Shown here: piece by piece, positions 2,741-30,569 of the stretch
Layout of the letters: each line of letters begins with the position of its first letter
Position numbering within the stretch: the first letter of the stretch is position 1
Notes under the pieces: model-generated
The model's database searches: none
What the model was told of the DNA's origin: nothing
Seen by the model: only the letters and a program-made list of their open reading frames with translations
Made by a program: the position numbers and the translations under genes
Source of the DNA: a virus
Virus record (IMG/VR): IMGVR_UViG_3300047550_007048
Direction: 5' to 3' (one strand)
DNA: 31,333 nucleotides

Positions 2741-2753
2741 TGTATTTATCGGA
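2741..2753 (-). promoter_or_regulatory. GATAAATA start-proximal motif (CCGATAAATACAC), 5 nt before the ATG of the small basic ORF
   Basis: One member of a recurrent motif family; see findings. Confidence 0.5.
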
Positions 2754-2940
2754 GGGCTTTCACCACCAGCGGGCATCGCGCCCTCTGCCGGGACTCTCAC
2801 CCGGCCCCTCCGGAAACGGATCATCACCGGGTTCCATCCTAGGATGACGCCCGGCTCCCCTCTCTAGCTTGCTAGCGCTTGGGGATTTGCGCACACCTGG
2901 CATGGTGTATCGCGCAGGGATCGTTCCCAAGGCTCTATTA

Positions 2941-3019
2941 ATGGTCTCGGTGGTGTGATTCGAACACACGATCTCCTGCTCCCAAAGCAGGCGGATTAAG
3001 CCAGACTATCCTACACCGA
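2941..3019 (-). tRNA. tRNA-Pro(TGG), CCA encoded
   Basis: Acceptor CTCGGTG/CACCGAG. Anticodon arm CCTGC-TTTGGGA-GCAGG. T-arm GTGTG-TTCGAAT-CACAC. Discriminator A plus CCA. Confidence 0.75.
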
Positions 3020-3072
3020 GGTATTTCTTAACATCCGTATATGCTTACTTATGCGCTATGCCGTGCGATGTG

Positions 3073-3852
3073 TCAATCGTTTTCCAGCCCGTACCGGCGG
3101 AGCTCTGCGTGGCCGAGCTGGCGCTTGGATGCGTAGTAGTAACTGCCGGTGATGGCGTCGCCCCAAGAACGCCTGGGCAGGGAAGGATGGCGGACGGTGA
3201 CCTTGCGGACGACGTCATATGCCTCGCCTCCGACGGTGTATTCCGACACGCTGCCGTCCGCACGAACGTGCGTGCGCTTCTGCGGAGCAGGCACCTCCTT
3301 GAGGATGCCGGCATACCAGATGCCGTCCTGCTTGCGAACCTCGGTACCGTCAGGCAGGCGCCGCTCCCGCGAGAAACGCTCCTGCTCGGCCTCGGCCTTT
3401 TGCCTGCGGCGCTGCTGCGTCCACGTCATGCGATTGGGGTTGCGGCAGAGCATGCCCGTGTCCGGATCGACGTAGAAGCGGGACCAGTTGCCGAGAGGAC
3501 CGGGGCGGCCGTCATAATCCCAGAGCTCACCGTCCTCGTTGCGACGCACCTTGGTGTTCACGTACTGCTTGACATGATCAAGGACGTGCTGCTGCACGGT
3601 GTTGTCCGGGCGGATGTTTTCGCAGATCTCGCTGTAGACGTCGTCCCAGCGGCGACCGGTCCTCGAGTCCAGGAACCGCAACAGCGGAGCGAGATTCTCG
3701 TTCAGCTGCTTGCCATTGTAGCGGCGAACATGGGGAGCACGCATGCCCTCGTGGCTGACCTGGAGATCGTCGTCGATCCGACGACCGGGTCGAGTTCCGA
3801 ACCCCTTGATCCGGGGACGCTCGACGATAACCTTGCTCATATCGTGTCTCAT
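3073..3852 (-). CDS. hypothetical protein (about 259 aa)
   Basis: Long minus-strand ORF with coding-like composition. Start chosen at the first ATG (MRHDMSK); TTG at 3858 and ATG at 3840 are alternatives. A CGATAAATCC motif lies about 54 nt upstream (3906-3918). Confidence 0.5.
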   Translation of the reverse strand: MRHDMSKVIVERPRIKGFGTRPGRRIDDDLQVSHEGMRAPHVRRYNGKQLNENLAPLLRFLDSRTGRRWDDVYSEICENIRPDNTVQQHVLDHVKQYVNTKVRRNEDGELWDYDGRPGPLGNWSRFYVDPDTGMLCRNPNRMTWTQQRRRQKAEAEQERFSRERRLPDGTEVRKQDGIWYAGILKEVPAPQKRTHVRADGSVSEYTVGGEAYDVVRKVTVRHPSLPRRSWGDAITGSYYYASKRQLGHAELRRYGLEND

Positions 3853-3905
3853 GCTCAAAACTTAACATCAACGACCTTGCCGGTCAACTGGATTTAATGG
3901 GAATG

Positions 3906-3918
3906 CCGGGATTTATCG
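3906..3918 (-). promoter_or_regulatory. GATAAAT motif (CGATAAATCCCGG), about 54 nt upstream of the 3852 start; overlaps the stop codon of the GT gene
   Basis: Motif family member; here at promoter-like distance rather than start-proximal. Confidence 0.4.
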
Positions 3919-28910: not shown

Positions 28911-28938
28911 GCCGCTTTTACCTCCAGTTGCTGGTTAA

Positions 28939-28952
28939 CATATAAATACCGC
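28939..28952 (+). promoter_or_regulatory. CATATAAATACCGC motif 18 nt upstream of ATG 28970, followed by an AGGAG SD
   Basis: Motif family member, in the divergent region between 28910(-) and 28970(+). Confidence 0.45.
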
Positions 28953-28969
28953 AGCAGGAGAACCACAAT

Positions 28970-29278
28970 ATGCGACTTCATGAGATTGCACAAAATCCAA
29001 CCTCCGGCGGGGATCAAGGTGATCTCCGATCTGCATTAGCATCACCTGGGGTGGTGAAGATAACCAACGCCAGCTATGACAGCAGCGGTCCAAGCCTTGG
29101 AACCCTGCAGGACCTGGGAGCCGGCAAGATAGTCAGGGAAAACCCGCCCTACAAGGGCAAGTGGTTTGGATTCAATTATTTCACCAAGTTCCCGGACGGA
29201 ACGCCGATACTGGCCAAGATAGATCTTGGCCACGGGGAGATTCTCGAACCCGGCGGCAGCTTCATGGACGACTATTGA
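28970..29278 (+). CDS. hypothetical protein (102 aa) with N-terminus MRLHEIA
   Basis: ATG with SD. First 7 residues identical to the 18838 ORF but with different codons. Confidence 0.45.
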   Translation: MRLHEIAQNPTSGGDQGDLRSALASPGVVKITNASYDSSGPSLGTLQDLGAGKIVRENPPYKGKWFGFNYFTKFPDGTPILAKIDLGHGEILEPGGSFMDDY

Positions 29279-30084
29279 TCCAAGCGCCTTTCCAGCTCGG
29301 CTGCCACGCTGGCGGCGAGATCCGGATCAAACGAGGATTTCTCCTCGTTTAGGCTGTCCATGTTTTCCAGGGCCCACATGTAGTAGTCGGTATCTATCTC
29401 CGACAGGGCCTTGCCCTTGTGCTTGCCGAACGGCCATGAGGTTATGGGAATCGCTCTCCAGCAGAGGGCGTGTACCTGATCGCCAACGTCGGGACCGTCG
29501 ATGATCTGATCGGTGGCCAGTGCGTAATCAACCAGGAACTCCAGCAGGACCGCGCAGACCATGGCATCCGCACCGGCCCGATGGGCCTCGATGTCATCCG
29601 GTATCGGAAGATCAAGCTTGTAGCGGAGATAGCTGAGGTTGTATTGCATGTCGGGGAAATCAACATCCCGCAGCAGTTGCTTGCTGAGCCTGTGGGTGCA
29701 GATCCACCGAGATCCATCCAGAGCACGCTCGGCATCCTCGATCGAATCGGATTCGATCCATGCCTTGGCCAGCACCTCTTGGTCATACTTGCAGTTGTGC
29801 GCAACCAGGAAACCGCTGCCTTCCCAGCCCAGGATCTGCCTGCAGATCTCCGTGCTTTGGGAAAATGTCGGTAGGCCCTCGATCATCCTGTTGCTGATGT
29901 GGTTCTTGGCGCTGGCCTCGGGCGGGATGCCATCGCGGGCGCCCAACAGGCGACTCGATACGGTCCAGTTCTGCCCGTCATACTGGGCACCCGCGATCTC
30001 GACGATCTCGGCCTTGTCGGGATGGAGATTGGTGGTTTCTGTATCTAGTACGGTAACGCTACCGAGGAATGATTGCCTGCTCAT
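29272..30084 (-). CDS. DnaQ-like (DEDDh) 3'-5' exonuclease with C-terminal DUF3820 (270 aa)
   Basis: Exo I VLDTETTNL. Exo II VAHNCKYDQEVL. Exo III EAHRAGADA. C-terminus WPFGKHKGKALSEIDTDYYMWAL. ATG overlaps the upstream stop (ATGA). Confidence 0.8.
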   Translation of the reverse strand: MSRQSFLGSVTVLDTETTNLHPDKAEIVEIAGAQYDGQNWTVSSRLLGARDGIPPEASAKNHISNRMIEGLPTFSQSTEICRQILGWEGSGFLVAHNCKYDQEVLAKAWIESDSIEDAERALDGSRWICTHRLSKQLLRDVDFPDMQYNLSYLRYKLDLPIPDDIEAHRAGADAMVCAVLLEFLVDYALATDQIIDGPDVGDQVHALCWRAIPITSWPFGKHKGKALSEIDTDYYMWALENMDSLNEEKSSFDPDLAASVAAELERRLDQ

Positions 30085-30545
30085 TCCACATGTGTAATGC
30101 CTACGCCGTAGAATGTAAATCTAAGGAAGAAGTAGCTTTCCTTGTTTTGCAGGTTTTGCACGTTCATCCAGTAGGTGGTGCCTGGATTGATCCATCGGTT
30201 GATGTCGGCGGGTTGCAGGTCCGGGGTCTCCACCTGATCCAGCAGGTAGAAGTTCCACTTGGCACCATATGGACCGGGATTTATGGTCGCCTGCGACGCG
30301 CGGGGCTGGGCGGTCATGCTTTCTCCCGAGGCTTCCGTGCTGGGCCAGCATCGTATCGCCGGTATGAAGCAGCTTTCGAACGGGGTGGTGTCAGCAATGT
30401 CGATCACCAATTGCCGGTAATAGCGGCGCATGGCGAAGGGGAAGCAAAGGGTCCTCGATGCCGGTAGAACGTAGGTGTGTTCAGGGTTCAGTTCCGTTAC
30501 GATGATCGATCCCTGCGGGAGGTGTCCTGTGAAGTATGTTGGCAT
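30081..30545 (-). CDS. hypothetical protein (155 aa, MPTYFTGHLPQGSIIVTELNPEH...)
   Basis: ATG at 30543-30545 with CGATAAATACCTC immediately upstream. Translationally coupled to the exonuclease. Confidence 0.5.
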   Translation of the reverse strand: MPTYFTGHLPQGSIIVTELNPEHTYVLPASRTLCFPFAMRRYYRQLVIDIADTTPFESCFIPAIRCWPSTEASGESMTAQPRASQATINPGPYGAKWNFYLLDQVETPDLQPADINRWINPGTTYWMNVQNLQNKESYFFLRFTFYGVGITHVE

Positions 30546-30569
30546 GAGGTATTTATCGCTAAATAAGCC
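30546..30569. promoter_or_regulatory. divergent promoter region carrying back-to-back motifs: GAGGTATTTATCG (minus strand, abutting ATG 30545) and GCTAAATAAGCC (plus strand, 24 nt before ATG 30593)
   Basis: Motif family members on both strands. Confidence 0.45.

Follow-up and report, generated by a model that had tools for sequence, protein, structure and literature searches.

The 31.3-kb window analyzed here (IMG/VR virus record IMGVR_UViG_3300047550_007048, a huge-phage fragment; 55% GC) carries a recurrent heptamer, ATAAATA, that sits at a short and nearly fixed distance from the start codons of many genes. We propose that this heptamer is the recognition box of a phage late sigma factor of the gp55 family, which would redirect the host RNA polymerase core, and that it probably drives the production of leaderless mRNAs; our confidence is higher for the gp55-type promoter than for the leaderless transcript. 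The box would act as a -10-only promoter that needs no -35 element. About one third of the protein genes in the window would thus be expressed from mRNAs that begin with the AUG and have neither a leader nor a Shine-Dalgarno sequence (SD). Where the promoter stands at a greater distance, it would drive leaders containing an SD and tRNA sub-clusters. In a full-text literature search of incomplete coverage, we met with no description of T4-type late promoters joined to start codons and none of leaderless late mRNAs in T4-like or jumbo phages.

Sixteen exact copies of ATAAATA are present in the window (13 on the minus and three on the plus strand), compared to 1.46 ± 1.27 expected from 100 dinucleotide shuffles (maximum 6), which corresponds to an enrichment of about 11-fold. 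The sequence GATAAATA occurs six times against 0.48 expected, and the arrangement ATAAATA-N4-6-ATG, where N is the number of nucleotides between box and start codon, seven times against 0.09. Although coding sequence makes up 68% of the window, 13 of the 16 copies are intergenic, and the remaining three overlap the last codons or the stop codon of the upstream open reading frame (ORF). All 16 are oriented toward the next gene or tRNA, and the base preceding the heptamer is G, T or C in 15 of them. An earlier note on this DNA had claimed a recurrent motif next to start codons and asked for motif statistics with strand and distance to the start; these came out in its favor, the motif being enriched over the shuffled background, tied to the strand of the downstream gene and concentrated at a fixed distance from the ATG. 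The extended flanks that it had drawn, (C/G)GATAAATA(T/C)C, proved to be local and are not conserved in relatives, where ATAAATA forms the core and the base before it is mostly G, C or T. Weaker entries in its list are the distant cases at 3852 (ATAAATC), 16111 (ATAAATG) and 30593 (CTAAATA), which carry one-mismatch variants; the list also missed the start at 11383 (N5), three tRNA-proximal copies (12432, 17772 and 19455) and the copies at 23746 and 27998.

Nine window starts have the box 4-7 nt upstream, one of them as the variant CTAAATA, and no SD is found in the 4-7 nt between box and start at these motif-proximal genes. Two further starts (8154 and 28970) have the box 19-21 nt upstream and an SD in the leader, and in three cases (12432, 17772 and 19455) the box precedes a tRNA 5' end by 13-15 nt. 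Outside the heptamer, the upstream sequences of the window genes are unrelated to each other. The sites are listed below, with L006 and L019 denoting loci of relatives.

2743..2749, minus strand: ATAAATA, N5 before ATG 2737; the 49-codon ORF 2588-2737 is a candidate gene, with no homologue in the related loci.
8128..8134, plus strand: ATAAATA, N19 before ATG 8154 of a GIY-YIG endonuclease; AAGGA SD in the leader; promoter and leader almost identical in L006.
11389..11395, minus strand: ATAAATA, N5 before ATG 11383 (116 aa); overlaps the stop codon of the Sir2-like gene; N5 also in the L006 orthologue.
12432..12438, minus strand: ATAAATA, 15 nt upstream of the tRNA-Thr(tgt) 5' end at 12416.
13217..13223, minus strand: ATAAATA, N7 before ATG 13209 (189 aa, one of a three-gene paralogue family).
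13236..13242, minus strand: second, tandem ATAAATA, N26 before ATG 13209, within the dyad CCGGATAAATATCCGG.
17444..17450, minus strand: ATAAATA, N4 before ATG 17439 of a radical SAM/SPASM protein (405 aa).
17772..17778, minus strand: ATAAATA, 14 nt upstream of tRNA-Gly(tcc), whose 5' end is at 17757.
18844..18850, minus strand: ATAAATA, N5 before ATG 18838 (169 aa); kept in 12 orthologous upstream regions.
19455..19461, minus strand: ATAAATA, 13 nt upstream of the tRNA at 19370-19441, detected by Rfam only.
19617..19623, plus strand: ATAAATA, N6 before ATG 19630 (187 aa), an isolated plus-strand gene behind a 59-nt divergent intergenic region.
22533..22539, minus strand: variant CTAAATA, N5 before ATG 22527 (DUF559 endonuclease-like, 206 aa).
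23699..23705, minus strand: TATAAATA, N4 before ATG 23694 of a GIY-YIG/NUMOD3 endonuclease; N5 in the L006 orthologue.
23746..23752, minus strand: second TATAAATA, 51 nt before ATG 23694.
27998..28004, minus strand: TATAAATA, then about 150 nt lacking any known gene and a 12-bp GC-rich hairpin with a T-run at 27850-27820.
28942..28948, plus strand: TATAAATA, N21 before ATG 28970 (102 aa, N-terminus MRLHEIA), an isolated plus-strand gene; AGGAG SD in the leader.
30550..30556, minus strand: ATAAATA, N4 before ATG 30545 (154 aa).
30559..30565, plus strand: variant CTAAATA, N27 before ATG 30593 (collagen-like), back to back with the site at 30550..30556.

Three of the isolated plus-strand genes (8154, 19630 and 28970) each have a box in their short upstream region, and the gene at 19630, being isolated in a divergent region, needs a promoter of its own. 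The copies in front of tRNAs, SD leaders and isolated plus-strand genes indicate that the element acts in transcription and not only in translation. Orthologues of the 22527 gene have CTAAATA at N5 in L006 and ATAAATA at N4 in L019. The segment 27820-28004 could be a candidate short transcript, either a small RNA or the mRNA of a micro-protein. A dyad surrounds some of the copies (13232-13249, CCGGATAAATATCCGG, and 18842-18853 in the window; 9985-10000, GCCGATAAATATCGGC, in L019); it may be the site of a regulator or due to chance, and it is not common to the ATAAATA sites of the pooled relatives described next.

Relatives carrying the gene for the 169-aa protein were obtained by an IMG/VR profile scan together with exact-protein look-ups. 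Exact-DNA and single-protein scans of IMG/VR gave no relatives, and only the alignment-based scan succeeded. For the window itself, exact-protein look-ups led only to contigs of 1.6-3 kb. This phage or a near relative is present in SRR35181309, SRR35181308, SRR13054055 and JGI 3300042987, and the L006 lineage in JGI 3300061632. The relatives form two groups. Group A (GC 36-55%, contigs up to 452,799 and 374,314 bp) has ATAAATA at N4-6 before the orthologue of the 169-aa gene, the rest of the upstream region being unalignable; this placement is kept in 12 orthologues with a GC content of 37-55%. L006 has the same gene order as the window, its proteins being about 80% identical, and L019 shares with it the Sir2 protein (70%), the two phosphatases (75% and 83%), the 169-aa gene (54%) and other genes. 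Group B consists of T4/phiN3-like phages of 32-35% GC with SD leaders. In these low-GC relatives (L017 10001-14528; L035-L039), the 169-aa homologue is located directly upstream of gp55, gp47 and gp46, and phages with gp55 seem to conserve it as an accessory gene.

We pooled 14 non-redundant group A loci (288 kb) and counted ATGs that open ORFs of at least 60 codons. Among the 121 copies of ATAAATA in this set, such ATGs are found at N4 (12), N5 (30), N6 (4) and N7 (2), with a mode at N5; starts at N4-6 thus account for 46 of the 121 copies, or about 40%. The start codons at N4-7 are 48 ATG and one TTG, with no GTG. Moreover, of the ATGs that follow the motif by 3-6 nt, 83% begin an ORF of 60 codons or more, compared to 18% of random ATGs. 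A position weight matrix of the 30 N5 sites has no conserved column from -52 to -14, and hence no -35 element, and the sites show C or T at -1 in 29 of 30 cases and A at +4 in 28 of 30. Compared to SD-type starts of the same loci, motif-proximal starts are enriched in a pyrimidine at -1 (89% versus 56%, p=1e-4) and in A at +4 (82% versus 40%, p=5e-6). The mode of initiation, leaderless-type or SD-type, is kept gene by gene among the window, L006 and L019. In addition, 12 of the pooled copies lie 3-18 nt upstream of tRNAs, several of them at 6-8 nt, a spacing at which the RNA start predicted from T4 would coincide with the mature tRNA 5' end.

Several lines of evidence indicate that the motif-proximal ATGs are true starts. 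For the 169-aa protein encoded at 18838, 44 homologues were found; in the alignment of 18 of them, the N-terminus M-R/K-L-x-E-I is conserved and nothing upstream aligns, and because of this conserved N-terminus the start is confirmed. An independent gene call in a Logan contig uses the identical ATG at 17439, the JGI gene caller started the L006 orthologue of 11383 at the corresponding ATG, and the GIY-YIG genes have the expected motif directly after the ATG. Public gene calls, by contrast, extend leaderless-type genes upstream to spurious starts (L006 10001-10609, L014 10001-10516, L006 5873-6658 and window 30081-30728), so that a protein of 165 aa, for example, is annotated with 202 aa and one of 229 aa with 261 aa. 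In this class of genes, start codons are systematically misannotated.

In T4, the late promoter consists of eight base pairs, TATAAATA, the first of which occupies -13 ("A(-13) in place of T"); it has no -35 element and is read by gp55 (PMC2988020); the late box of cyanomyoviruses is NATAAATA (PMC2984593). The window motif matches both, in agreement with its earlier assignment to the T4-like late-promoter box. As the box spans -13 to -6 in T4, the N5 spacing would place +1 on the A of the ATG, and N4 or N6 would place it within one base. The RNA would then begin with pppAUGA..., leaving no room for an SD. By this analogy with T4, the leaderless mRNAs predicted by the earlier note are supported, and the late timing that it assumed is a presumed one. 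Bacterial RNA polymerase prefers a pyrimidine at -1 and a purine at +1 of the start site. The pyrimidine at -1, the almost exclusive use of ATG and the narrow N5 mode all fit transcription starting at the ATG.

The likeness to T4 extends beyond the box. T4-type late promoters, served by gp55, gp33 and the gp45 clamp, use the same heptamer without a -35 element, on either strand and about once per 2-3 kb. A gp55-family sigma factor adjoins gp47 and gp46 in a related genome as in T4, and the box precedes baseplate and virion genes in relatives. However, T4 and most T4-like phages place an SD leader after the box, with a peak at N15-30, compared to the dominant N5 without a leader here. The sigma factor known from the relative is also longer (274-286 aa), and the bases after the box are often GC-rich.

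That sigma factor is encoded on the 452,799-bp contig IMGVR_UViG_3300032315_001715, which carries both L019 and a second locus, L180. The 274-aa protein encoded at L180:9983-10807, found with a profile of the Rak2/CBB sigma type, has hits to phrog_12791 ('sigma factor for late transcription'; 5e-86) and to phrog_234, the family of T4 gp55 (4e-21); it thus belongs to the Rak2/CBB type (274-286 aa) and not to T4 gp55 proper. The gene is equipped with its own sigma-70-like promoter; gp47- and gp46-like genes come after it, and it faces a virion/baseplate operon with GATAAATATC upstream. A profile of T4-type gp55 matched only the low-GC group B loci, a T4 gp55 protein search together with a GTDB genome scan retrieved only ordinary T4-like contigs of at most 40% GC, and a metagenome scan with the Rak2-type sigma profile gave no closer link to the window. 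The search for a gp55-like sigma suggested by the earlier note found one on the 452.8-kb contig that carries a close relative and none in the window itself.

The same sigma type is found in the Rak2-like jumbo phages (Pectobacterium phage CBB and Cronobacter phage GAP32), whose 'promoter 3' has the same ATAAATA and was proposed to serve late and structural genes; the CBB member is CBB_244 (phrog_12791). In the CBB study, ATAAATA was put forward as the late promoter, CBB_244 was described as a distantly gp55-like sigma, and homologues of gp33 and gp45 were reported to be lacking (PMC5259590). Different from the present case, the CBB box lies 28-46 nt before the annotated sheath, tube and neck starts, and no leaderless layout was reported.

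Several observations weigh against our proposal. No gp55-like ORF is present in the window, and the link to the sigma factor runs via a relative with 54-83% protein identity to it. The RNA start site is placed by T4 geometry only, so that its predicted position is an analogy. From the ATG, ATAAATA at -12 to -6 occupies the position of a ribosome-binding element, and the N4-6 copies may have a translational role. T4 late promoters are AT-rich just after the box (PMC2988020), whereas GC-rich bases often fill the 4-6 nt at this position in the window (TCCGC, CACGC, GCGG, CCTC), an AT-rich segment being seen only in low-GC relatives. The genes served in the window are accessory, homing endonuclease and tRNA genes, with no structural genes among them. 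The counts are partly dependent: some window genes are paralogues, and 12 of the 45 pooled leaderless-type starts (counted for ORFs of 100 codons or more) come from the 169-aa family. At 2737 and 30545, the starts are candidates only, and public gene calls start the 30545 ORF upstream, giving 168 or 198 aa instead of 154 aa. In CBB, the boxes lie 28-46 nt before the starts and none is at N4-6 in the 49 kb examined; given these leaders, the leaderless layout is not general to this sigma type. We infer that the box is read by a gp55-like sigma and that it is used late in infection; leaderless mRNAs would presumably be translated efficiently in the host.

The translational role could be the whole explanation if ATAAATA at -12 to -6 were an SD-independent element recruiting ribosomes, for instance an A/U-rich site for ribosomal protein S1, on leadered or polycistronic RNAs. 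The motif is located exactly where an SD would be in genes that lack one, many of these genes are just downstream of same-strand tRNAs or genes from which read-through is plausible, and the A at +4 and second codons AAA or AGA also favor translation. However, the same heptamer is found 3-18 nt before tRNAs, 19-21 nt before genes with their own SD and 28-46 nt before CBB structural genes, and it is the documented box of gp55-type promoters. The isolated plus-strand genes need a promoter, and the heptamer is the only conserved element in the 59-nt upstream regions; the pyrimidine at -1 also suits a start site. S1-type A/U-rich enhancers do not resemble an exact heptamer. We consider a purely translational element unlikely.

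A promoter it may be, yet one read by the primary sigma factor of the host from a -10 element alone, constitutively or early and with no phage sigma. TATAAAT resembles TATAAT, and host-type promoters are in use: a perfect TTGACA-16-TATAAT is present at 9633-9606 (minus strand), just upstream of tRNA-Ser, and TTGACA...TATACT/TATAAT precedes tRNA-Leu in L015 and L025. Against this, ATAAATA supplies A2 and T6 of the hexamer together only in a register in which the next base is T, and that register would start transcription past the ATG. The TG extension and the -35 element are absent, and the heptamer is nearly invariant across the hosts implied by a GC content of 36-55%, unlike the degenerate -10 boxes of hosts. 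Sigma-70-like matches are not enriched in the window (10 versus 9.3 and 8 versus 10.5), and a gp55-like sigma is present in the lineage. Altogether, recognition by the host sigma seems quite unlikely. As to the tRNA array, it seems to have host-type promoters besides the ATAAATA boxes: TTGACA-16-TAATAT is also found at 12634-12607 (minus strand), just upstream of tRNA-Ala, and in L015 and L025 an ATAAATA sits inside the spacer of sigma-70-type promoters.

It is very unlikely that the heptamer is instead an RNA-processing signal, an AU-rich endonuclease site that splits tRNAs from mRNAs and creates short leaders by cleavage. Many copies do stand immediately behind the CCA 3' end of a tRNA and ahead of the following gene, and the window is one long same-strand array of tRNAs and genes, but the motif also precedes isolated opposite-strand genes, occurs in divergent intergenic regions and stands before structural genes away from tRNAs; moreover, its spacing to the ATG is sharper than a cleavage site would give, and it is identical to a known promoter box. 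Least credible is a by-product of duplication or mobility, in which paralogues (the genes with MRLHEIA-type N-termini at 18838, 28970 and 11383, and the 13209/19630 family) and three other motif genes, endonucleases in low-GC islands, carried their upstream sequence along with no shared function: this is largely refuted by flanks that are unrelated outside the heptamer, by carriers as unrelated as radical SAM, DUF559, tRNA, baseplate wedge and virion protein genes, and by an enrichment that holds in 288 kb of relatives.

With the gp55-type promoter as the preferred explanation, the distribution of the N5 layout was compared among 80 loci with a Rak2-type sigma (1.08 Mb) and 80 ordinary T4-like gp55 loci (1.0 Mb). 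In the former, ORF-opening ATGs are found at N5 in 35 cases versus two at N4 and three at N6, and about 30 of the N5 sites belong to one gp25-like baseplate wedge gene (phrog_43) on about 30 contigs with this sigma type. In the latter, 23 are at N5 versus none at N4 and two at N6; this spike comes mainly from two conserved small genes, and most boxes are 10-40 nt upstream. The N5 module thus recurs, though rarely, among phages with gp55, and in group A it has spread to about 40% of the boxes. In marine T4-like loci within L042-L121 (for example L105 6075, L111 6875 and L114 692), ATAAATA-N5-ATG precedes two conserved proteins, one of 150-200 aa (N-terminus ...NKNFLSPxGFQF...) and one of about 125 aa, and these loci also encode gp55.

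Isolated phage mRNAs with a 5'-terminal AUG and no SD are long established, namely lambda cI transcribed from PRM and P2 gene V. Those are single regulatory cases depending on the host sigma-70, compared to a genome-wide module serving dozens of genes here. The nearest functional analogues are the Thermus phages phiYS40 and Lalka27a, in which most transcripts have the first base of the initiation codon as their 5' end, six bases past a -10-like element, and whose distinct late -10 consensus implies a phage factor (bioRxiv 10.64898/2026.04.20.719267). They differ from the present phage in their consensus (TAGGGT / TANNNT) and in a first base of A or G, whereas all but one start here is ATG; their host uses leaderless mRNAs widely, and the phages are unrelated and much smaller. 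Among jumbo phages, none of the early transcripts of phiKZ is leaderless (PMC8244752), and the untranslated regions of AR9 measure 26-491 nt (PMC5312081).

A broader scenario, which we offer as a speculation, is that a lineage of uncultivated huge phages, with contigs up to 453 kb and dozens of tRNAs, has fused the gp55-type promoter to the start codon and thereby gained a leaderless channel for many genes and some tRNAs, that is, SD-independent late synthesis. Within this scenario, SD-independent late synthesis would be favored when phage or host alters ribosomes, initiation factors or SD mRNAs during infection, and the N5 spike in marine T4-like phages suggests an ancient module that has escaped notice among phages with gp55. 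If transcripts do begin at the ATG, as in our main proposal, a major environmental group of huge phages would express at least one third of its genes without ribosome-binding sites in SD-using hosts, which bears on the means by which translation is taken over late in infection. Start codons in these phages would have to be reannotated, and ATAAATA-N5-ATG would provide a simple rule for promoters and true starts in hundreds of metagenomic phage genomes. As the N5 geometry occurs at baseplate and a few other genes of T4-like and Rak2-type phages, cultured test systems may exist.

The window contains 42 tRNA genes detected by ARAGORN, all on the minus strand, and accessory genes stand between them. 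About ten genes have canonical SDs of the AGGAG type, with GTG starts sometimes among them, and therefore the window is from a phage of an SD-using bacterium. SD-less translation of the Bacteroidetes type was rejected because of these SDs. The vault protein, collagen repeats and TAAATG-like late motifs also brought a eukaryotic giant virus into consideration as the origin; the SDs, homing endonucleases, tRNAs of bacterial type and myovirus relatives led us to reject it. The accessory genes encode a major vault protein-like protein, methyltransferases, an epimerase, sulfotransferases, a Sir2-like protein, two dual-specificity phosphatases, a radical SAM/SPASM protein, an ExoX-like exonuclease, GIY-YIG and DUF559 endonucleases and a collagen-like protein. 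Further features are as follows.

1-2505, minus strand: 834-aa protein with Major Vault Protein shoulder and repeat domains.
12640-13209, 13239-13820 and 19630-20193: three paralogous genes of about 190 aa, with no match to a known family; also present in L006 and L019.
10729-10798, 13827-13964, 18232-18306, 19370-19441 and 26936-27008, all minus strand: five extra tRNA-like genes detected by Rfam and missed by ARAGORN.
22704-22788, 22796-22881 and 23955-24038, minus strand: long tRNAs of 84-86 nt, assigned to Gly(tcc), Gly(gcc) and Lys(ctt), respectively.

The tRNA-like gene at 13827-13964 spans 138 nt, suggesting an insertion or an intron, and the gene 13239-13820 begins 4-10 nt past its CCA end, with neither an SD nor the motif. 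The tRNA at 22704-22788 scores 53.7 bits against the tRNA-Sec model, above the Rfam gathering threshold, and its anticodon is not TCA. The low-GC islands at 8001-9000 and 22001-24000 (0.42-0.45 versus 0.55) contain the GIY-YIG/NUMOD3 and DUF559 endonuclease genes; the near identity of the 8154 gene in L006, including promoter and SD, is expected for mobile homing endonuclease genes.

Links to cultured phages are sparse: a megablast search with 25 kb matched only tRNA-Ala, and the 169-aa protein had no tblastn match among 50,697 phage records. The best cultured matches of the exonuclease are PA5oct and Rak2-like jumbo phages. The vault-like gene was tried as a lineage marker and abandoned, since its homologues are in huge phages of 24% and 32% GC (LR756500 and LR756501) in which ATAAATA is too common and the N5 pattern is absent. 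XacN1, a tRNA-rich phage of 53% GC, was likewise rejected, with only two ATAAATA in its first 50 kb and no N5 layout. The only phage homologues of the 834-aa vault-like protein (38% identity over the full length) are those of these metagenomic huge phages, of 735 kb (LR756501) and 462 kb (LR756500). In addition, two small ORFs of group A relatives (L012 19411-19617 and L015 15094-15321) match the RNA polymerase omega/Rpb6 family (PF01192).

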